Below, piece by piece: positions 12,796 to 45,045 of a stretch of 60,134 nucleotides of DNA. The DNA lies in the IMG/VR virus record IMGVR_UViG_3300020392_000017, positions 1 to 60,134 of that record, one strand, 5' to 3'. The position numbers were made by a program, and so were the translations under genes. Position 1 is the first letter of the stretch. Every line of letters starts with the position of its first letter. The notes beneath the pieces were generated by a model. That model was not told the origin of the DNA. It ran no database searches and worked only from the letters and a program-made list of their open reading frames with translations. This DNA is from a virus. Taxonomy: Duplodnaviria; Caudoviricetes.

Positions 12796-13260
12796 ATGGC
12801 GAACGCAGATAACAAATGTGCAGATTTGAAAGTTGAAGACTTTCACGCAGAAGCTGAAGATACACTCGGCCTAATTTACAACAAACAAGTAGAACTACAA
12901 AAACGTTTAGGTTTCGACTTTACTGGTTGGACACTAAAAGAAATCGCAGATTTCTGGTGTGTTAACAAACATGCAATGTCAGACGAACTAAACGAAATGT
13001 TTGATGCATTAGGAGGTATCAATGATGGAATTGGCTCAGCAGCTTGGAAGTACTGGAAAGGTACTCATAAAGATGCAGCTAATATGAAGATTGAAGATTT
13101 GTCTGAAGAGGACAAGTTAGAACTATTTTATGAATGGATTGATGGATTGCATTTCTATATGAACTTTGCAATTTCTATTGGTATGACTTCAAAAGATATT
13201 GTTAACTTGTACATGGCGAAGAATGCAGAAAATCACGACAGACAAAACCGAGGCTATTAA
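12796..13260 (+). CDS. Dimeric all-alpha dUTPase/dCTPase (T4 gp56-like)
   Basis: DELNEM, WKYWK, EWIDGLHF, YMAKNAENHDRQNRGY. Confidence 0.85.
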   Translation: MANADNKCADLKVEDFHAEAEDTLGLIYNKQVELQKRLGFDFTGWTLKEIADFWCVNKHAMSDELNEMFDALGGINDGIGSAAWKYWKGTHKDAANMKIEDLSEEDKLELFYEWIDGLHFYMNFAISIGMTSKDIVNLYMAKNAENHDRQNRGY

Positions 13261-14666
13261 TGTTATTAGATATTGAACAATTAGAAAAAGAAGTAATAGT
13301 ATCTTATTACGATAAAGAAGGCAAAGTTGCTTTCAAACGTTATCCAATCGATAAATTTCAAAACTGGGTAGTTGCTAAAAAAGATGATAGATGGAAAGAC
13401 CAAAACGTCACAAACTGGGATGGTCGTCCAATCAAGAAGTCTTTAGCTAGATCGTTTAATAAGTTCTCATTACTTTACTTCATGGATGGTCTTCCACAAA
13501 AAGACCAAGATGAAATCTTTGAGTTTAATATGCCTAAAACATACTTTGTCGATATTGAGACAGAGATTGTTGATGGCTTCCCAAAACCTGAAGAGGCTAA
13601 GTCTAGAATCTTAACCTTTTCAATTATCACACCAGAAAGAAAAGCTATCGTATTAGGTCTTGAAGATCTATCTTCCGATGAGATTAAAAAGATTGAAGAC
13701 GATAACAATAAACACTTTACTGGTTACGACCAAGACTGGGAATTTAGTTATTACAAATTTAAGTCGGAGTATGACATGGTTTATACATTCCTACATAAGT
13801 TTTTACCTAAGTTTCCTATGATGACTGGTTGGAATTTTATCAACTATGACTGGCAATATATTGTCAACAGATGTAAAATCTTACAGATTGATTTAACAGA
13901 AGTTGCTATTACTGGTTCGCTTGATAGAAAAGACTCTCGCCCACTTCACATGGGTATTTTGGACTACATGCAACTGTATGATAAATATGATAGGTCAGTT
14001 GCGGTTAAAGAATCTAATGCGTTAGCATTCGTTTCCGGAGCAGTCCTCGAGGGTATAAGCAAGATCCAATACACAGGTTCTCTCCAAGACCTCTACGAAA
14101 ACGACTTTCAAAAGTATGTTTTCTATAACGTAGTTGACTCTGTCTTGGTTTACTACATTGACCAAAAGCTTAGGTCGATGGAAGTACTGCTAACATTAGC
14201 AACAATCACGAGAATGCCTTTGTATAAAGCCGCTTCACCAGTGGCTGTTACTGAATCTCTAATGGCTCGTAAACTTACCGAACTAGGAAAACGTATCGGT
14301 GTAGAATATGACAGAGAAGACAGTAAGAAGGATAGCAAATATGAAGGAGCATTCGTTAAACAACCAATTGTCGGTTATTATGGTGGTGTAAGTGCATTTG
14401 ACTTTGCATCACTATATCCATCGATTATGAGGCAGTTTAACATTTCTCCTGACTCATTCGTCGAAATGGTAGAGGAATCACAGATTAAAGATCGCCGAGA
14501 GGATAAAGATGTAATTGTCTGTGAGAATGGCGTAGTCTATAAGAAGGAAGATAGTATTCTTAAAAAGATATTGGCAGATTTATATGACCAAAGAAGAGAA
14601 TACAAGAAAACTTCTTATGATTATTATGAAAAAGCGCACGAACTTGAGAAAAAATTTAGGCTCTAA
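13260..14666 (+). CDS. gp43: Family B DNA polymerase, N-terminal half (3'-5' exonuclease and motif A)
   Basis: DIETE, GWNFINYDW, YNVVDS, FDFASLYPSI; ends in the fingers region without motifs B/C. Confidence 0.92.
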   Translation: MLLDIEQLEKEVIVSYYDKEGKVAFKRYPIDKFQNWVVAKKDDRWKDQNVTNWDGRPIKKSLARSFNKFSLLYFMDGLPQKDQDEIFEFNMPKTYFVDIETEIVDGFPKPEEAKSRILTFSIITPERKAIVLGLEDLSSDEIKKIEDDNNKHFTGYDQDWEFSYYKFKSEYDMVYTFLHKFLPKFPMMTGWNFINYDWQYIVNRCKILQIDLTEVAITGSLDRKDSRPLHMGILDYMQLYDKYDRSVAVKESNALAFVSGAVLEGISKIQYTGSLQDLYENDFQKYVFYNVVDSVLVYYIDQKLRSMEVLLTLATITRMPLYKAASPVAVTESLMARKLTELGKRIGVEYDREDSKKDSKYEGAFVKQPIVGYYGGVSAFDFASLYPSIMRQFNISPDSFVEMVEESQIKDRREDKDVIVCENGVVYKKEDSILKKILADLYDQRREYKKTSYDYYEKAHELEKKFRL

Positions 14667-14831: not shown

Positions 14832-15833
14832 ATGTCATTATTTACCGAACGTATCCCATTTAAACCATTTGAGTACCCAGAATACTACACTGAAGGGTGG
14901 TTAAAACAAGCTCAAGCATTCTGGCTACACACTGAAATTTCTATGCAGGGTGATGTAAAAGACTGGAATGAAAATCTTTTACCTCATGAAAAACATTTAG
15001 TAGGTAATATATTGTTGGGTTTTGCACAGACAGAATGTGCAGTATCTGACTATTGGACACAATATGTAACGACATGGTTCCCTAAACACGAAATCAAGCA
15101 GATGGCTATGATGTTCGGTTCACAGGAGACTATCCATGCAACTGCATATTCTTATTTAAACGAAACTTTAGGTCTTGAAGATTTTGAAGCATTCTTACAC
15201 GAACCAGCAACTGCAGAAAAGTTTGAACTATTAACTTCAACTTCTGCACCATATACACATGAAGACTTAAAGAGAGACAAACAAGCTAGAAAAGAAGTAG
15301 CAAGATCTTTAGCTATTTTCTCAGCATTCGCTGAAGGTTGTTCACTCTACAGTTCTTTTGCAGTTTTATACTCATTCCAAATGAGAAACTTGTTAAAAGG
15401 TATTGGCCAACAAATGAAGTGGTCAGTAAGAGATGAATCTTTACATTCTAGAATGGGATGTAAATTATTCAGACACATGTGTGAAGAATATCCAGACTTG
15501 AAACAATCGGTAGAAGCCGATATATTAAAAGCAGGAGAGCTTATTAAGGAATTAGAGCACAAGTTTATCGATAAAATGTTCGAACAAGGAGATTTAGATA
15601 ACTTAAAAGCTAAAGACTTAAAGAATTTCATTACTAAGAGAGTAAATGAAAAACTAATTGAGCTTGGTTACGAATCAGCTTTTGAATTTGACGAGGAATC
15701 GGCAGATCAATTAGAATGGTTCTATCATTTAACAGGTGGACACACTCACACTGACTTCTTTGCAATCAGATCTACTGATTACTCTAAAGCAGGTGAAGGT
15801 GAAAACTGGGACGAAGACGATTTATTCGATTAA
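14832..15833 (+). CDS. nrdB: Ribonucleotide reductase class Ia beta subunit
   Basis: PFEYP, QETIHATAY, RDESLH di-iron motifs. Confidence 0.95.
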   Translation: MSLFTERIPFKPFEYPEYYTEGWLKQAQAFWLHTEISMQGDVKDWNENLLPHEKHLVGNILLGFAQTECAVSDYWTQYVTTWFPKHEIKQMAMMFGSQETIHATAYSYLNETLGLEDFEAFLHEPATAEKFELLTSTSAPYTHEDLKRDKQARKEVARSLAIFSAFAEGCSLYSSFAVLYSFQMRNLLKGIGQQMKWSVRDESLHSRMGCKLFRHMCEEYPDLKQSVEADILKAGELIKELEHKFIDKMFEQGDLDNLKAKDLKNFITKRVNEKLIELGYESAFEFDEESADQLEWFYHLTGGHTHTDFFAIRSTDYSKAGEGENWDEDDLFD

Positions 15834-15842
15834 ACTATAACT

Positions 15843-17663
15843 ATGGCAGACAAAATTAAAAACCACGGCGAGCACCTAGGCTGGAAGATCGACGTAGATT
15901 TTCCATCCTGGGCAAATACCGAGGTGTATGTAAAAACAATATCAGCAGGTTACCTATTTAACGGTGAAAAACCAAAAGACGCTTATTGGAGAGTTTCAAC
16001 TACAGTAGCAAAACGTTTAGGTAAACCTGAATTAGCAAGCAAATTTTTTGATTATATCTGGAAGGGTTGGTTAAACCTAGCCTCTCCAGTTTTATCTAAC
16101 ACAGGACTAGAAAGAGGTTTACCTATTTCTTGTTTTGGTATCGATATAGCAGACTCTATTCACGATATAGGTTCTAAGAACTTAGAGATGATGCTCTTAG
16201 CAAAACATGGTGGTGGAGTAGGTATTGGTGTAAATCAAATCAGACCAGCCGGTGCAAAGATTACCGGTAATGGTACATCAGATGGTGTTGTACCTTTCTG
16301 TAAGATTTATGACTCTACAATACTAGCTACAAACCAAGGTTCAGTAAGACGTGGTGCAGCATCAGTAAATATCGATATTGAACATGGTGATTTCTGGGAA
16401 TGGTTAGAAATTAGAGAGCCTAAAGGTGATGTCAACAGACAGTCACTTAATCTTCATCAATGTGTTGTTGTACCAGATGGTTTCATGCAGAAGGTACAAG
16501 AAGGTGACAAAGAGGCTCGTAAAAGATGGGTTGCAGTTCTTAGAAAAAGAAAAGCAACTGGAGAGCCTTATGTAATGTTCAAAGGGAACATAAACAGAGC
16601 AAACCCGGACGCGTATAAGCAGAATGGCCTTAAAGTTTATATGACCAACATTTGCTCTGAGATTACTCTACACACAGATGAATCTCACTCATTCGTATGT
16701 TGTTTATCTTCAGTAAACTTAGCAAGATATGATGAGTGGAAAGATACAGATCTTATTTACACAGCGACATGGTTCCTTGATGGAGTGTTAGATGAATTTA
16801 TTCAGAAAGCAAAATTCATGAGAGGTTTTGAGAACTCTGTAAGATCTGCAGAAAAAGGTAGAGCGTTAGGTCTTGGTGTACTAGGATGGCATACTTATTT
16901 ACAAGAAAGAGGTATTCCATTCGAGGGACTATCAGCTCAATTTGAGACTAGAAAGATATTCCAACAATTAAGAACTGAGACAGAGAAGGCCAGTAGAGAT
17001 ATGGCGATGGAATATGGTGAACCTCTATGGTGTAGAGATACAGGTATGAGAAACACTCACCTCAGAGCCATTGCACCAACCGTATCGAACTCAAAGCTAG
17101 CAGGTAATGTATCTGCAGGTATCGAGCCTTGGGCTGCTAACGTGTTTACAGAACAAACAGCAAAAGGTACATTTATTAGAAAGAACCCAGTGTTAGAGAA
17201 ATTCTTACAAGTAATTAATAAGAATACTAGAAAGACATGGGATAAAATTCTAGAAGATGGTGGTTCTGTACAAGGCTTAGATTTCATAGATGATTGGTAT
17301 GTAAAGATAGCCACTCATATCGGTGACAAAGAAAACTTAATGGGTAAAAAGAAGTTTGAAGATCTGCCAGAAACAGACAAAGATAACTGGATCCCTGTTA
17401 AGAATATCTTTAAGACATTTAAAGAGATAAATCAATTAGACTTAGTAAAGCAGGCTGGTGTTAGACAACAGTATGTTGACCAGGCAGTAAGCTTAAATTT
17501 AGCATTCCCAACACAAGCAGACTCTAAGTTTATTAATAAAGTACACTTAGAAGCCTATAAAGAAGGCGTCAAGACACTTTATTATATGAGAACAGAGTCA
17601 GTTTTAAGAGGCGATATTGCTACTGCAGCAATCGATCCAGATTGTGCTGCCTGTGACGGTTAA
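15843..17663 (+). CDS. nrdA: Ribonucleotide reductase class I alpha subunit (no ATP cone evident)
   Basis: ISCF, GGGVG, TNICSE, CCLSS, IAPT, C-terminal CAACDG. Confidence 0.95.
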   Translation: MADKIKNHGEHLGWKIDVDFPSWANTEVYVKTISAGYLFNGEKPKDAYWRVSTTVAKRLGKPELASKFFDYIWKGWLNLASPVLSNTGLERGLPISCFGIDIADSIHDIGSKNLEMMLLAKHGGGVGIGVNQIRPAGAKITGNGTSDGVVPFCKIYDSTILATNQGSVRRGAASVNIDIEHGDFWEWLEIREPKGDVNRQSLNLHQCVVVPDGFMQKVQEGDKEARKRWVAVLRKRKATGEPYVMFKGNINRANPDAYKQNGLKVYMTNICSEITLHTDESHSFVCCLSSVNLARYDEWKDTDLIYTATWFLDGVLDEFIQKAKFMRGFENSVRSAEKGRALGLGVLGWHTYLQERGIPFEGLSAQFETRKIFQQLRTETEKASRDMAMEYGEPLWCRDTGMRNTHLRAIAPTVSNSKLAGNVSAGIEPWAANVFTEQTAKGTFIRKNPVLEKFLQVINKNTRKTWDKILEDGGSVQGLDFIDDWYVKIATHIGDKENLMGKKKFEDLPETDKDNWIPVKNIFKTFKEINQLDLVKQAGVRQQYVDQAVSLNLAFPTQADSKFINKVHLEAYKEGVKTLYYMRTESVLRGDIATAAIDPDCAACDG

Positions 17664-17664
17664 A

Positions 17665-17750
17665 GGTGTGGTTTGAAGACCACGTCTTAGGACCGAGATA
17701 GTTCTCGGAAAAAGAGGGCCGGAGTTCGCTACTACCGGCCCTTATTTATT
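17665..17750 (+). ncRNA. Putative structured RNA (three hairpins) with segments complementary to 23S rRNA H69-H71; the last hairpin is also a bidirectional terminator
   Basis: GTGGT-TTGAAG-ACCAC; CCGAG-ATAGTT-CTCGG; AGGGCCGG...CCGGCCCT; contains CTTAGGACCGagATAGTT and TTCGCTAC. Confidence 0.5.
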
Positions 17751-18900
17751 ATAGCAGTTTGGAAAACTTTTCAGCTTCTATCTCTCTGATTTTATCAGCA
17801 ATCTCTGCACCTTTCACATCAAATTGCTTCATTACATCTCTACCGTTAGTAGAAGGTTTGTATTTAAGAAAAGCTCTAATCATTTTCATATCTAATCTTT
17901 TCAATACTGAGAATTCTAGGATAGTCTTTTTATCTAAGTCTACACTATCTCTCTTCTTACTCAATTCAAATACACCTTCTGGTTTTAGAGTTAGAAGAGA
18001 CTTCAAGAAAATAATAGCTTTAATCTCTTTATCTGAAAATGTTAACTTATTCATTTGAGATTTAATCTGGCTATTTTCATTTACTAAAAACAGATTAGCT
18101 ATTTGTACCAACCAATCCTTTGAATTGATGAAGTCTTTATTGACGTAAACAGTAGGAAACATTACAGGCCAAAGCTTAAAGTCTTCCACCATCTGTAAGT
18201 ATTTCTTTGGAGACTTTGCAGTTTCTATAGATTTCTTAAATTCATCTCTAATTCTTTCTGCACTAATTCCCTCTAAAGAGTTATCAGAAATAATAGCCTC
18301 TGCAGTATTCTTTTCTATCTTACCTCCAGTTCTACCAGCAAATCTTAGGGCTCTTAGTTTTCTCAATGGATCTTCCTCAAATCTCTCTTGAGCTCTACCT
18401 ACAGTTCTAATAGAATTAGATTGAATATCCGCAATACCACCGACTAGGTCTACTACTTCTTTCTTTTCAATATCGTAGAATAAAGCATTGATAGTTAAGT
18501 CTCGTCTTAGAACGTCTTTATCAATTGTAGAAAAGTTAACAGCATCTGGTCTTCGACCTTTACCAATATCTTCTCTAAAAGTTGCAATCTCCATACCCTC
18601 TTTAAATGAAGGAGTTTTTGCAATTACAACTCCGAATTGAGTTCCTACTTCACCGATAGTATCAATACCACCAGATTTAAGTATTTTTACAACTTCATCT
18701 GGTTTAGCATCAGTAGCTAAATCAAAGTCTTTTGGTTTGATACCTAACATTGCATCCCTAACCGCACCACCAACTACATAAAGTTCTCTCTTATTCTTCT
18801 TAAAGAGTTTATGTAGATCTTTGACATCACGAGGTATGTTTAGCTTCAATCTCTGTTGAGCTTCTAACAATAAGTTGAATTGTGTGTACGACTTTATCAT
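17749..18900 (-). CDS. cca: tRNA nucleotidyltransferase (CCA-adding enzyme/poly(A) polymerase family)
   Basis: VGGAVRD, DFDLAT, EIATFR, RRDLTINA, EDPLRKLR, ERIRDEF. Confidence 0.9.
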   Translation of the reverse strand: MIKSYTQFNLLLEAQQRLKLNIPRDVKDLHKLFKKNKRELYVVGGAVRDAMLGIKPKDFDLATDAKPDEVVKILKSGGIDTIGEVGTQFGVVIAKTPSFKEGMEIATFREDIGKGRRPDAVNFSTIDKDVLRRDLTINALFYDIEKKEVVDLVGGIADIQSNSIRTVGRAQERFEEDPLRKLRALRFAGRTGGKIEKNTAEAIISDNSLEGISAERIRDEFKKSIETAKSPKKYLQMVEDFKLWPVMFPTVYVNKDFINSKDWLVQIANLFLVNENSQIKSQMNKLTFSDKEIKAIIFLKSLLTLKPEGVFELSKKRDSVDLDKKTILEFSVLKRLDMKMIRAFLKYKPSTNGRDVMKQFDVKGAEIADKIREIEAEKFSKLL

Positions 18901-20438: not shown

Positions 20439-21647
20439 ATGAACGTAACGAAACTCTCTGAGAAACCTATCGATCAACTTAGTAGAGAAGAGGCGGAGCT
20501 GCTTGTAGACCACTACAAGCAGTTATCTGCTAAATATACGGCTTATGAACAAGCAGTAAAATTAACTCTTAACTCTATCTACGGTGCATTCGGTAACAAA
20601 TGGTTTCACTTCTTTAATATCAATATCGCCGAGTCGATAACTAAACAGGGTAAGAATGCTATTCTCTACTCTGAATCTATATTGAATAAGTATTGTCAAG
20701 AGTTTTGGCATAAAGACACTAAAGTACACGAGCAGTTCGGCTTAACAGTAAAAGGTAAAGTTGAAAAGCCTGCAGTAATCTATATTGACACTGACTCGTG
20801 TTACGTGCAGTTTCAAGATCTTTATGAGACTATCGTTTGGAACGATGAGTCTAAAGCTCTACCTATCGACGAGTTTATTCTAGCATTCTATGCATTTAGA
20901 CTCAAGGATTACATCACGGCATGTATGAAGAAATATGCAGACTCTAGAAACACAGACAACTTCTTATTCTTTGAATTAGAATCTCTAGCATATAATGGTA
21001 TTTGGATGTCTAAAAAGAAGTATATTCAAAACATTGCATGGGATGATAAATTGGAAACTACCGATAGACACCCATCACTTAAGAAAGTAAAAACAATCGG
21101 CTTTGATACTATCCAATCTTCTACACCAAAATTCGCCCGCGAAAAACTGGTAGAAGCTCTTAGAATTTTATTTAAGTCACAAAAAACTCCCGGTGCTGAA
21201 GAACTACAACAATTAGTCACATTCATGAAGAATTCTAAGAAAGAATTTCAACTTGCAAACATCGATGACATCTCATTCAATAGAAGAACTAACAACATTG
21301 AGAAGTATATTGTCGACGATCAAATTGAGTTCCAAGTAGGATTAAAATGTCCAGCTAATGTAAAAGCAGCAGGGTATTACAACTATATTCTTAATCAAAA
21401 TAAAAAGTTTAAGAATAAGTACAAAGTAATCGGTAACGGTGAGAAACTAAAAATCTATAACTGTAAGACTCCAATCTCTGAGGTATTTGCCTATTTACCA
21501 GGTGAACATCCTTACGAAATTGCTCCTAAAGTAGATTTCGATACACAGTTTGAAAAGTGTATGATTGACCCACTTAATAGAGTATTAACAGCAATTGGTC
21601 TTCAGACCTTAGATACAAACTTAATTTACGCATCAGCATTATTTTAA
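20439..21647 (+). CDS. gp43: Family B DNA polymerase, C-terminal half (motifs B and C, thumb)
   Basis: KLTLNSIYG (motif B), YIDTDS (motif C), KKKY; ends ...SALF. Confidence 0.92.
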   Translation: MNVTKLSEKPIDQLSREEAELLVDHYKQLSAKYTAYEQAVKLTLNSIYGAFGNKWFHFFNINIAESITKQGKNAILYSESILNKYCQEFWHKDTKVHEQFGLTVKGKVEKPAVIYIDTDSCYVQFQDLYETIVWNDESKALPIDEFILAFYAFRLKDYITACMKKYADSRNTDNFLFFELESLAYNGIWMSKKKYIQNIAWDDKLETTDRHPSLKKVKTIGFDTIQSSTPKFAREKLVEALRILFKSQKTPGAEELQQLVTFMKNSKKEFQLANIDDISFNRRTNNIEKYIVDDQIEFQVGLKCPANVKAAGYYNYILNQNKKFKNKYKVIGNGEKLKIYNCKTPISEVFAYLPGEHPYEIAPKVDFDTQFEKCMIDPLNRVLTAIGLQTLDTNLIYASALF

Positions 21648-35781: not shown

Positions 35782-38133
35782 ATGGCAAATAAAAACGACT
35801 TATTGATTGTCGAAATGTCTTCGTCTCAGTTAACTGGTACAGTTTCTGAGAATAAAGAATACATTCTAGAGGGTATCTTTGGAGAAATTGACTCCAAGAA
35901 TAAAAATAATCGTATTTATACTGAAGATGAGTATTTACCTCAGATTCAGCAACTACAAGATAAGATTAAATCATCCAAGTTGTTAGGTGAGTTAGACCAC
36001 CCACAACAATTTGATGTTTCCCTTAAAAATGTTTCTCACATTATCGAAGAACTTTTCTACGACAAGGACAACAAACAAGTAAAAGGTAAAATCAGATTAT
36101 TAGATACTGATGCAGGTAGACAAGCTAAAGCTCTTGTTGATGCTGGAGTACCTTTACAAATCTCTTCTAGAGCAGCTGGTGCTGTTGAATCAAACGGTAA
36201 AGTAAAAATTAAGCAATTATTTACTTATGACCTAGTTGCAGATCCTGGTTTTGCAAATGCAGAGCTAAAAAGAGTTAACGAGTCTTATGGCTTTGACAAT
36301 GAGTCAGGTCTATGGATCTACGAAATGGACAGTAATACTCCAGAAGTAGAAAAAGAAATTACAGAAACCAATACAGAAACAAATAATAATAAAAACATGG
36401 CAGAATTTGTAAAAGCTGAAGATTTCCACAAGTATTCTGAGTACTTAGCAAATGAAATTAAAGGCATAAAAGAGTCTATCGGAGCAAATAGCGAAGATAA
36501 CACGTTAGAGAACGTAAAGTCTCATAACGACCACATCGTTGAGCGCGTTAATACTCTCTCAGAATATGTTGAGTATTTAGCTGGCAAATTAGACGAGTCA
36601 ATCCAGTATTCAGAGCACGTTGCTGAGAAAGCAGATCAAGGTATTTCTTACAGCGAATCTATTGCTGAAAAATTAGATCAAGGTATTCAATACTCTGAGC
36701 ATTTAGCTGAGGCTGTTGGTAAAGTTAAAGACTTTGCTAACTATTTAGCTGAACAGCACAATGAAGGTACTGAAACTTCTAAGAACTTATTATCTTATGT
36801 AGAATACTTAAAAGAAAATCTACAGAATGTATCTGAGTATGCAGAGTATATTGCAACTCAAATCAACGAAGGTATGGTAAAAGAGGAAGAAGTTGAAGAA
36901 ACTGAAGAAGTTGAAGAAACTGACGAAACTCCAGAAGTTACTGAAGAGGAAACTCCAGAAACTAACGAAGAAGAAACTACTAACGAAGAGGAAGTAGAAG
37001 AAACTGAAGAAGTTGAGGAAACTGAAGAAGTAGCTGAAGAAGATGAAGCAGGTGAAGGCGCTGAAGAAGTAGTTGAAGACGAAGTCACTGAAGAAGAAGG
37101 TGAAGAAGTTGAAGAAACTATGGAAGAGGAAGAAACTACTGAAGAATCTGAAGAAACTAACGAAGAAGACGAAGCTGGCGAAGGTGCTGAAGAAGTTGCT
37201 GAAGAAGATGAAGCAGGTGAAGGCGCTGAAGAAGTAGTTGAAGACGAAGTTACTGAAGAAGAAGTCGAAGAAATGCACGACGAAGAAAAAGAAGAAGTCG
37301 AAGAAATGCACGACGAAGAAAAAGAAGAAGTAGCTGAAGAAGACGAAGCTGGTGAAGGTGCTGAAGAAGTAGTTGAAGACGAAACTAACGAAGAAGACGA
37401 AGCTGGCGAAGGTGCTGAAGAAGTAGTTGAAGACGAAACTAACGAAGAGGAAGAAGCTACTGAAGAATCTGAAGAAACTAACGAAGAGGAAGAAGCTACT
37501 GAAGAATCTGAAGAAACTAATGAAGAAGAAACTACTAACGAAGAGGAAGTAGAAGAAACTGAAGAAGTTAAAGAAGAGGAAGAAGAAGTTGAAGAATCTG
37601 CTTTAGATACTTACAAGAAAGAAATTTCATCTAAATTAGATGCATTAGTTGAAGCTGCACAAACTAAAGAAAATGAAAACCCATCATTCTTTAAGGTTGT
37701 ATCTAGCTCAACACAAGAAAAGTACAATGCATTAAACGAAGATGCTAAAACTGAAGTTAGACAAAGAGTTGCTAAAAGAGGTTTTATGACTGAAGGCGAA
37801 ATCAACGCAATCGTTGAATCTTCTGAAGCAGTTGTAGAAGCTAGAACAGCTGAACCATTCTTTATCACTGCAGCTCCTGCAGAGTACAAAGAGAAGTTCG
37901 AAGCTCTAACTGAAGGAAAACAAAATCAAATCAAAGCTCAAGCTAAATACCATACTCTAAATACTGAGTATCAAGTTAGAAACTTCTGGGAAACTAGAGA
38001 TCTAAGAGAGGTAAAAGTTGACCTAGAAAAATTAGCGGCAGTTAACGAATCAGCAGCGACTGAGAAGAAAGACGAGCCACTATATGATGTGTCTAACTAC
38101 GCTGAAAGCTTAAAGAAAAGATTTAAAAAGTAA
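35782..38133 (+). CDS. gp21: Prohead protease fused to a long acidic scaffold/core region
   Basis: NKNNRIY, GELDHP, ISSRAAG, YDLVADPG, then a coiled-coil and Glu-rich tail; GATATATAA at 35751. Confidence 0.88.
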   Translation: MANKNDLLIVEMSSSQLTGTVSENKEYILEGIFGEIDSKNKNNRIYTEDEYLPQIQQLQDKIKSSKLLGELDHPQQFDVSLKNVSHIIEELFYDKDNKQVKGKIRLLDTDAGRQAKALVDAGVPLQISSRAAGAVESNGKVKIKQLFTYDLVADPGFANAELKRVNESYGFDNESGLWIYEMDSNTPEVEKEITETNTETNNNKNMAEFVKAEDFHKYSEYLANEIKGIKESIGANSEDNTLENVKSHNDHIVERVNTLSEYVEYLAGKLDESIQYSEHVAEKADQGISYSESIAEKLDQGIQYSEHLAEAVGKVKDFANYLAEQHNEGTETSKNLLSYVEYLKENLQNVSEYAEYIATQINEGMVKEEEVEETEEVEETDETPEVTEEETPETNEEETTNEEEVEETEEVEETEEVAEEDEAGEGAEEVVEDEVTEEEGEEVEETMEEEETTEESEETNEEDEAGEGAEEVAEEDEAGEGAEEVVEDEVTEEEVEEMHDEEKEEVEEMHDEEKEEVAEEDEAGEGAEEVVEDETNEEDEAGEGAEEVVEDETNEEEEATEESEETNEEEEATEESEETNEEETTNEEEVEETEEVKEEEEEVEESALDTYKKEISSKLDALVEAAQTKENENPSFFKVVSSSTQEKYNALNEDAKTEVRQRVAKRGFMTEGEINAIVESSEAVVEARTAEPFFITAAPAEYKEKFEALTEGKQNQIKAQAKYHTLNTEYQVRNFWETRDLREVKVDLEKLAAVNESAATEKKDEPLYDVSNYAESLKKRFKK
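36882..37598 (+). repeat. Glu-rich imperfect tandem repeats in the protease/scaffold gene
   Basis: EEDEAGEGAEEV x5, EEVEEMHDEEK x2, EEEEATEESEETN x2. Confidence 0.9.
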
Positions 38134-44411: not shown

Positions 44412-45045
44412 AGACCACTTTTCAGAAGTAATAGATATTACTTTATATAAGTACAACTCAATCGACCTCAAGTTATGGGGTGTAATCATGAGAGACTTTA
44501 AGACCAGATCTACTGGTGATAAATCTATGTTAGTCTCAAAAGATAGAATGTTAGAGTACTTACAGGTAGGTTTTAGAGATGATGTCAATAGATTCTCAGC
44601 AGTTAGTGATGTTAACATTCACAAAGAGGCTACTTCCATCTATTTTATTTGGCAGATATTTCAAACCATGCCTAATCTTAGATATATTAGAGTAAATCTA
44701 AATATGAATTCTAGCTATAATAGAATTGTAAATGTAGACCAGGTTAAAACAATCAAATATGATATTAAAACCTTAAGAGGAAGTATTCGTATGTTCGACC
44801 TATTTAATCCACATGAATTACAATTAGCTAATACAATTTTAAGAAAAGCTGGTCTAATTAAAGGTGGTGAGAAATTCAAAACATTTAAACTAAGAGATTT
44901 CTTAAACTCGTTAGATTTATTTCAACAAGAGAATAATACAGTAGAAATTCTAGGAGTAACTAACGCATTTATCCATACATTAGAGCACCATGAGTCAGAT
45001 AACCCTGAAATGCTCTTAATCACCGACTGGGAGTCAGATATATAA
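44398..45045 (+). CDS. Hypothetical protein
   Basis: 215 aa ORF. Confidence 0.6.
   Translation: MQKAEDHFSEVIDITLYKYNSIDLKLWGVIMRDFKTRSTGDKSMLVSKDRMLEYLQVGFRDDVNRFSAVSDVNIHKEATSIYFIWQIFQTMPNLRYIRVNLNMNSSYNRIVNVDQVKTIKYDIKTLRGSIRMFDLFNPHELQLANTILRKAGLIKGGEKFKTFKLRDFLNSLDLFQQENNTVEILGVTNAFIHTLEHHESDNPEMLLITDWESDI

Follow-up and report, generated by a model that had tools for sequence, protein, structure and literature searches.

The stretch of DNA analyzed here, called the window throughout, comprises 60,134 bases from the record of an uncultured virus (IMGVR_UViG_3300020392_000017) with an estimated completeness of 21%, and the DNA runs containing it are labeled marine metagenome. Within it, an 85-nucleotide (nt) gap at 17664–17748 separates the ribonucleotide reductase gene nrdA from a convergent gene of the CCA-adding family. 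An earlier reading of the window, made from its letters only and hereafter the sequence-only reading, placed three hairpins between convergent nrdA and cca genes; its coordinates and letters are correct, and the fold and the positions of open reading frames (ORFs) confirm the arrangement. The gap specifies a real and conserved plus-strand RNA that occurs in single copy, is essentially confined to phages, and exposes two short stretches, here seeds A and B, complementary to neighboring positions of 23S rRNA. Features of the locus, with rRNA positions in E. coli numbering and H69 and H70 standing for helices 69 and 70 of 23S rRNA, are as follows.

14832–15833: nrdB, upstream of nrdA in the gene order nrdB–nrdA–convergent gene

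15843–17663, plus strand: nrdA (Pfam Ribonuc_red_lgC, 7.9e-88)

17664–17752, plus strand: the whole RNA element, three hairpins and a U-rich tail, beginning 1 nt past the nrdA stop codon

17664–17687, plus strand: hairpin 1, a variable scaffold with core GUGG/CCAC at 17668–17671 and 17680–17683

17686–17695, plus strand: seed A, CUUAGGACCG, exact complement of 23S 1920–1929

17693–17708, plus strand: hairpin 2, CCGAGA/UAGU/UCUCGG, with a loop region (17698–17703) that complements the H69 loop, 23S 1912–1917

17714–17743, plus strand: hairpin 3, a GC-rich terminator-like stem with seed B shown in its loop

17725–17732, plus strand: seed B, UUCGCUAC, exact complement of 23S 1930–1937 (H70 loop region)

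17742–17752, plus strand: U-rich tail, UUAUUUAUUAU, 3' of hairpin 3 and overlapping the stop codon of the convergent gene

17749–18900, minus strand: convergent gene, PolyA_pol/CCA-adding family (Pfam, 5.3e-33), listed for context only

The plus strand of the gap is predicted to fold into the three hairpins with an energy of −41.1 kcal/mol (z −4.8), which none of 200 shuffles equals. Covariance model R1 scores the element at 101.7 bits, the sole strong match in the window (next best 16.9 bits). Complementarity was examined against the E. coli rrlH gene and the 23S genes of Flavobacterium, Flavisolibacter, and Dyadobacter. In rrlH, the target of the 18-mer that starts with seed A lies at 1912–1929 and is directly adjoined by the target of the 8-mer at 1930–1937, and the target stretch is letter-identical in the other three genera, so the two complements reported by the sequence-only reading hold for E. 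coli and Bacteroidota alike. Bases 17686–17695 match abutting 23S positions at 10 of 10 letters and bases 17725–17732 at 8 of 8; the complement of seed A takes in the H69 3' strand and the first part of H70. The two mismatched bases of the 18-mer, 17696 and 17697, belong to the stem of hairpin 2, as had been proposed. The same reading saw AUAGUU as a hairpin loop. These bases do complement the H69 loop, but the fold shows a UAGU tetraloop closed by an A-U pair and not a loop of six.

Relatives of the element come from 80 viral loci fetched by NrdA alone. The element is 3' of nrdA and on the nrdA strand in 28 of them, and, with the window included, the covariance model detects it in 29 of 81, always on the plus strand. 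In loci L002 and L015, it is a few hundred bases further on, past an extra ORF, and in nrdA loci that lack it the downstream sequence is unrelated. Structure was assessed with a hand-set structure, the covariance model, and pair counts. Across 25 distinct copies, 94.7% of cells are paired and double changes occur at 19 of 24 pairs; none of 500 shuffles reaches any of five measures, and slid partners give 37–50% paired. RNAalifold found no structure on a MAFFT alignment, in which stems of unequal length are misaligned, and stem-length cross-pairing and shuffle controls separate weakly (10–13% of controls reach the real mean, many arms being related). Hairpin 1 has changes on both sides at all seven modeled pairs, and its arms differ widely between relatives (e.g. 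CCAACC/GGUUGG). Three of six pairs covary in hairpin 2 (e.g. AG/CU vs. UU/AA) and 9 of 10 in hairpin 3, for which 26 copies have 17 distinct 5'-arm sequences and each keeps at least nine contiguous pairs. The helices of the family are scaffolds only, which vary and covary.

Constant in all copies are two short exposed stretches: (Y)UUAGGACCG, which links hairpins 1 and 2, and U-UCGCUAC-Y, presented by the hairpin 3 loop. Jointly, they are the exact complement of a continuous and universally conserved stretch of 23S, 1920–1937, which runs from the 3' strand of H69 into helix/loop 70. UUAGGRCCG, at 17687–17695, is invariant or near-invariant in the 25 distinct nrdA-linked copies and recurs on other scaffolds. 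Positions 17687–17691, 17693, and 17695 are invariant in seed A, and its sole substitution in nrdA-linked copies is an A to G change (L014 and L024) that would leave a G.U pair with the rRNA. In seed B, 17726–17732 are invariant. Conservation of the loops in related phage loci, which the sequence-only reading had advised searching for with a covariance model, is thus present in a structure whose stems are free to change. Over the 25 copies, there are 20 invariant positions; 16 fall within the 26 complementary bases (5.8 expected; hypergeometric p 8e-8) and 14 within the two exact-complement blocks (p 1e-8). The excess of complementarity over chance is established by relatives, because it is their invariant positions that coincide with the complementary bases.

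Paired cells include 55 G.U and 0 A.C combinations, so the plus strand is the folded RNA and is antisense to 23S. In all cases, the element is on the strand of its upstream gene. The loop of hairpin 2 is retained by most relatives and is different in L015 and L036. A kissing contact between this UAGU loop and ACUA in the loop of hairpin 3 is possible in the window and was rejected, as L015, L036, and L109 change the loop without compensation.

A pattern of the two invariant motifs, searched in viral sequences, occurs in at least 120 viral stretches. All but two of the viral matches listed have a structured element, the exceptions (L115 and L172) being inside ORFs. Elements of type A have the architecture seen in the window. 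Those of type B are richer in GC, with seed A in a bulge or loop, an extra hairpin that the window element lacks, seed B in a short hairpin, a conserved 3' tail, and no T-run; these copies are flanked by genes of one orientation. The two types have entirely different scaffolds around the seeds. In most of the matches listed, the element starts ∼6–37 nt past the stop codon of a same-strand ORF. These upstream ORFs are mutually unrelated: among 231 flanking proteins of the matches listed, NrdA and a repeat protein account for 14 each and ∼100 are singletons. All 12 phage records searched have a single strong copy (one has an extra, weak match of 27.8 bits), and they include a 93%-complete record of 310 kb and a complete genome of 352,754 bp with terminal repeats. 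The same pattern was applied to 596 Gb of bacterial and archaeal genomes. Eight of the 120 matches listed come from 23S genes themselves. The architecture of the element, judged by eye, is seen in just two, L213 and L257, both on short contigs from metagenome-assembled genomes; the remaining matches listed, also judged by eye, are mostly chance occurrences inside coding sequence and were rejected as bacterial homologues.

The extra hairpin of type B has a loop that covaries with the 3' tail (GCCAC/GUGGC, GGU/ACC, GAC/GUC, and GCUAC/GUAGC; e.g. L126, L140, L176, and L193). Among the matches listed, 41 of 67 type-B copies have a 10–11 nt complement to 16S 515–533 and the other 26 have only 6–8 nt. 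We rejected a seed against the 530 loop of 16S since an internal pseudoknot is the better explanation: changes in the loop are matched by the tail of the same RNA. Separately, 20 type-B loci have an ORF of 83–101 amino acids (aa) ∼75–100 nt downstream of the element (e.g. L086 2027–2287). Its product has similarity to small jumbo-phage proteins, among them one annotated as a T4 DsbA-type dsDNA-binding protein, and in the four cultured jumbo phages examined for this region a DNA polymerase gene is just downstream, directly or past one to four small ORFs.

Pseudomonas phage PA5oct, a jumbo phage, is the only cultured carrier found. Both motifs are at MK797984.1:115,477–115,542 on the plus strand, within a 136-nt gap between EST35_0189 and EST35_0190 (MK797984.1:115,474–115,609; locus L330 1498–1633), with a separate hairpin, a terminator, downstream of them. 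The stretch recurs at 99% identity or more in eleven PA5oct-like records. Folding prediction gives a weak structure (z −1.7) that pairs part of seed A, so membership of the PA5oct element rests on the motifs, their spacing, and a type-B-like hairpin. The four noncoding RNAs in Table 1 of the phage omics paper (PMC7318152) do not include it. The motif pattern has no match in Sinorhizobium phage Phosso, Salicola phage SCTP-2, or Agrobacterium phage Atu_ph07. Model R1 has none in Cellulophaga phage phi14:2 or Flavobacterium phage immuto_3-5A, the nearest cultured nrdA relatives, where an empty outcome carries no weight. Against cultured phages, BLAST queries with the window element and with a type-B copy returned chance hits or none.

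Bases next to the seeds were left free by the search pattern and therefore bear on whether pairing to 23S is maintained. They were read in 44 type-A and 66 type-B copies among the matches listed. Immediately 5' of seed A, opposite G1929, 37 of 44 type-A copies have C or U and all 66 of type B have C. Type B continues with C in all 66 at the next base, opposite G1930, and with A or G in 48 at the one after, opposite U1931. Immediately 5' of seed B, opposite A1937, U is present in 31 of 44 type-A and 57 of 66 type-B copies; immediately 3' of this seed, C or U is present in 39 of 44 and 65 of 66, respectively. One position beyond these flanks, the preference is gone or contrary to pairing. Judged from these sequences, the flanks of the seeds vary in the manner predicted by pairing with 23S. 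The same seeds are shared by PA5oct and phages with nrdA like that of Flavobacterium and Cellulophaga phages, on quite different scaffolds and after many unrelated genes. A partner of seeds that are the same across host phyla must itself be conserved across phyla. As no internal partner of the seeds was found and scaffolds differ between types, a partner that is external and independent of phylum is favored. In three Bacteroidota genomes (4.3–8.3 Mb), both complements occur within 15 nt of each other solely at the 23S gene.

Seed duplexes with naked rRNA are computed at −15.9 and −10.2 kcal/mol, relative to opening costs of 10.5 for seed A and 3.6 for seed B. Cofolding with an 83-nt 23S fragment gives −68.8 kcal/mol as compared with −59.2 for the separate molecules, a gain of ∼9.6. 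On these energies, pairing with naked rRNA is feasible. They lend no support to invasion of a mature 70S ribosome.

The mechanism that we propose is as follows. An RNA of ∼85 nt on the plus strand, most likely carried at the 3' end of the nrdB–nrdA message, ends in its own terminator-like hairpin and belongs to a large, phage-specific, and uncatalogued family. Its seeds would pair with host 23S 1920–1937 before that stretch is locked into the ribosome, in nascent or late pre-50S particles or in free 50S subunits. Toeholds could be provided by the linker UAGGA (5 nt) and by the hairpin 3 loop, as in antisense RNAs that present loops. Pairing would then disturb or control 50S maturation or the joining of subunits during infection. 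Published observations are compatible with access at this stage. In late pre-50S particles of the 45S type, helices 67–71 are described as "highly unstable" or "highly dynamic" (PMC3737534), and MazF-mt6 cuts helix/loop 70 in 50S and not in 70S (PMC5408214). Our tentative reading, at somewhat less than even odds, is that the RNA binds 23S 1920–1937 in large subunits that are immature or free and thereby influences maturation of the 50S or the joining of subunits. The wider statement, that a dedicated small RNA found in phages of at least two host phyla hybridizes to the H69–H70 stretch in immature or free 50S and controls maturation or joining during infection, is plausible and somewhat doubtful. 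The suggestion of the sequence-only reading that a phage RNA base-pairs with the core of the host ribosome is in this sense supported rather than demonstrated: the seeds are the invariant and exposed parts of a covarying RNA and their flanks keep pairing.

Several observations weigh against pairing with 23S. The first is the level expected by chance. We searched the window for exact complements of at least 10 and at least 8 bases that abut on the rRNA and are no more than 60 nt apart on the window, using Flavobacterium 23S or E. coli 16S. The window has three such two-block matches, 300 shuffled windows have a mean of 0.65, and 47% of shuffles have at least one; with looser cut-offs, there are 51 matches in the window and 51.4 per shuffle. 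Considered alone, the window therefore has a 23S match at chance level, as about half of 60-kb windows would. The other two matches are inside long ORFs (36555–36581, plus strand, and 44858–44903, minus strand, in ORFs of 783 and 215 aa), consist of blocks of 10–11 and 8 nt to Flavobacterium 23S 450–468 and 2775–2792, and are taken as chance. A further 10-nt complement, of 17738–17747 to Flavobacterium 23S 10–19, was dismissed as chance; it falls in a variable stem arm.

Other points against concern the RNA and its target. Predicted unpaired probability in seed A is 0.75–1.0 only at 17688–17692, and its ends are inside hairpins 1 and 2; only 5 of its 10 bases (UAGGA) are thus free and the full opening cost must be paid to expose the rest. 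In type B, the two seeds compete for G1929 and G1930. The complement to the H69 loop in hairpin 2 is dispensable, being lost in L015 and L036, and hairpin 2 itself is missing in part of type B; the core target is consequently 1920–1937 and not the H69 loop. Residue U1915 of that loop is N3-methylated late, which would block pairing with the loop of hairpin 2 in mature ribosomes. Because pairing or burial hides the target in the mature 70S ribosome, the RNA could reach it only in subunits that are immature or free. The 16S complement of type B, which the pseudoknot better explains, demonstrates that complementarity to rRNA can mislead. Finally, a phage needs ribosomes too, and the benefit of blocking them is not evident.

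An alternative is that the invariant bases form a site for a universally conserved host protein or a tertiary fold, such as an aptamer-like core, and that complementarity to 23S is a coincidence or by-product. Aptamers and protein-binding sites typically have their conserved bases in junctions and loops, the predicted fold pairs half of seed A, and type B, in which a hairpin loop covaries with the 3' tail, has a compact pseudoknotted fold. However, by coincidence, invariant blocks of 9 and 7 nt would complement abutting positions in 4.4 kb of rRNA with a chance of ∼1e-5 per family, as estimated from block lengths, and this explanation does not account for flanks that vary between C and U opposite G. 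The complete difference of scaffolds between types A and B also argues against one shared tertiary core. We regard this alternative as unlikely.

The RNA could instead act in cis on its own message, contacting the departing 50S after termination, by way of the same complementarity, to hold or recycle ribosomes in a bacterial analogue of viral termination-reinitiation, or mainly stabilizing and terminating the transcript. The location of the motif ∼6–37 nt past a same-strand stop codon in most of the matches listed fits such action, hairpin 3 with its U-run resembles an intrinsic terminator, and type-B copies lie between co-oriented genes. But with one copy per genome, after unrelated genes, the element is not a general per-gene device, and because the next gene in the window is convergent, there is nothing to reinitiate. 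Nor is the in-frame position of the UAG in the seed kept, as gaps to the stop codon are found in all three phases. The same spacing led us to reject recoding or readthrough through the in-frame UAG at 17688–17690. Action in cis is quite unlikely on this evidence.

We assign a smaller probability still to an ordinary base-pairing small RNA (sRNA) whose seeds target host or phage mRNAs or tRNAs and not rRNA. A scaffold hairpin, a single-stranded seed, and a terminator hairpin make up the layout of sRNAs derived from 3' untranslated regions (3'UTRs), and sRNA seeds are typically 7–10 nt. Yet identical seeds across host phyla call for a target conserved phylum-wide, and in the three Bacteroidota genomes 23S alone offers both sites side by side.

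Function of the minus strand is a far more remote prospect. It carries sense-like pieces of 23S, and the A-run of the window could provide a minus-strand terminator. The sequence-only reading offered, among other things, a mimic of the host ribosome core, such as a decoy for rRNA-targeting toxins, or a decoy derived from a homing-endonuclease site; the former would be an RNA likeness of H69–H70 that draws off toxins or enzymes acting on rRNA, the latter a decoy at the DNA level. A mimic needs a sense RNA from the minus strand, where the 55 G.U pairs would become C.A mismatches, and the strand indicated by 0 A.C cells, by a U-run conserved on the plus strand only, and by the upstream gene is plus. 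The sense pieces are permuted and interrupted. As a homing site, they would be sense on an untranscribed strand and comprise two permuted pieces with two mismatches; no Rfam intron family hit and no endonuclease signal was detected in a test for group I introns and homing endonucleases, the neighbors being nrdB, nrdA, and the CCA-family gene. Neither form of decoy fits these data. A plain bidirectional terminator between convergent genes with a match to rRNA by chance, compatible with the statistic of the window alone and the terminator-like hairpin 3, can be practically discounted given linker and loop letters that are invariant while stems change, a single copy per genome, and at least 120 viral contigs.

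Hairpin 3 is terminator-like yet more than a terminator. A GC-rich stem of 9 bp is followed by UUAUUUAUU, and a run of at least four T follows the loop motif in 48 of 53 type-A copies among the matches listed. In place of the short loop of no particular sequence expected of a terminator, the loop is 8–12 nt and has seven invariant bases, and hairpin 3 is not among the hits of a consensus terminator scan. In the window and in L003, an A-run precedes hairpin 3 (17709–17743); other relatives lack it. On the minus strand, hairpin 3 is then succeeded by UCUUUUU and could also terminate transcription of the convergent CCA-family gene.

The proposed pairing of the RNA with 23S has partial parallels in several known systems. 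Short conserved complementary bases are presented in loops or linkers on stable stems by CopA/CopT of plasmid R1, RNA I/RNA II of ColE1, and OxyS–fhlA, and two separate contact sites that bind neighboring target stretches in permuted order are common to such loop-presenting antisense RNAs and the element. The former target a specific mRNA or replication primer whereas the complement of the element is, by sequence, a universally conserved core of 23S. The sRNAs CpxQ and SroC derive from 3'UTRs and, like the element, directly follow a stop codon, share the terminator hairpin of the mRNA, and have a conserved seed upstream; the element is 1 nt past the nrdA stop codon on the same strand, as it is 3' of nrdA in the 28 nrdA loci. 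Unlike them, it is encoded by a phage and has one seed inside the terminator loop. The snoRNAs of archaea and eukaryotes, also small, base-pair with functionally central parts of pre-rRNA, but the element lacks box C/D and H/ACA features and has no Rfam hit. Guide or chaperone RNAs of the snoRNA kind are not known from bacteria or phages. The calicivirus termination-reinitiation signal and plant-virus 3' translation elements are stop-adjacent viral RNAs with a short conserved complement to rRNA. Those pair with small-subunit eukaryotic rRNA and serve a downstream ORF, whereas the element complements 23S of the large subunit, lies past the stop codon, and is followed by a convergent gene.

An antisense molecule to the same 23S neighborhood has been made synthetically: a 13-mer peptide nucleic acid against helix 69, reportedly the work of Kulik et al. 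in 2017, is listed as antibacterial (PMC12916000), which also bears on accessibility of the target. It is man-made rather than a natural RNA and is aimed at the 5' side and loop of H69.

Species 2 RNA of T4 (rnaD) is a stable phage RNA of unknown function. Small and stable as the element would be, it is at NC_000866.4:71053–71171 (L334 2054–2172, minus strand), and its 5' hairpin displays the core of seed B as G-UCGCUA-C. This motif is kept by 6 of 7 aligned T-even relatives; in JE01, the first loop G is A. The two RNAs share this 7-nt loop motif only. Otherwise rnaD is unrelated: it has no seed A, is positioned in a tRNA cluster, and lacks homology to the element over its conserved 5' 49 nt and 3' 22 nt. 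An 8-nt complement of rnaD to 23S 1937–1944 was set aside, being confined to T4 and not kept in its relatives. No Rfam family covers rnaD. The species 2 RNA may be a distant relative of the family.

The family itself is absent from Rfam 15. The best hits overlapping the window element score ∼15 bits against gathering thresholds of 45–50, ten type-B loci have no hit at gathering score, and L145 has nothing relevant. Literature searches, supplementary files excluded, yielded no account of a phage RNA with complementarity to 23S rRNA. No RNA of a phage or bacterium is known to be designed for pairing with rRNA at its universally conserved core, and the known phage factors that touch the ribosome are proteins. 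If correct, pairing would make this the first natural antisense RNA against the conserved core of the bacterial ribosome and add a new layer to host takeover. It would also provide an evolution-tested antisense design against a site that is not easily mutated, and a tool to probe late 50S assembly. With or without pairing, a very widespread, single-copy, and strongly conserved class of phage RNA is missing from Rfam, and a member in the cultured model phage PA5oct, for which RNA-seq is published, makes the question directly testable.

Gene neighborhood informs the host and expression of the element. DNA of the window nrdA is ∼70% identical to nrdA in Cellulophaga and Flavobacterium phages, and on this resemblance the host of the window virus is likely a member of Bacteroidota. 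There is no promoter space between the nrdA stop codon and hairpin 1, and the nrdA transcript most likely carries the element. Expression data are contigs assembled from RNA libraries, which give neither strand nor ends nor proof of RNA as opposed to DNA origin. One such contig (run X15) spans 17190–17518 of nrdA at 100% identity and another, from a different study (run X16), spans 17679–17957, from hairpin 1 into the convergent gene, at ∼98% identity; 17558–17651 is covered by no RNA-library contig. The CCA-family gene beside the element is not conserved, as relatives have different downstream genes, and the window has no tRNA genes. A gene for family-B DNA polymerase appears by Pfam to be split into ORFs at 13260–14666 and 20439–21647, ∼5.8 kb apart. 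The first has an exonuclease domain and positions 32–137 of DNA_pol_B, the second has DNA_pol_B from positions 152–237 onward, and between the two halves are nrdB, nrdA, the RNA element, the CCA-family gene, and two unassigned ORFs.

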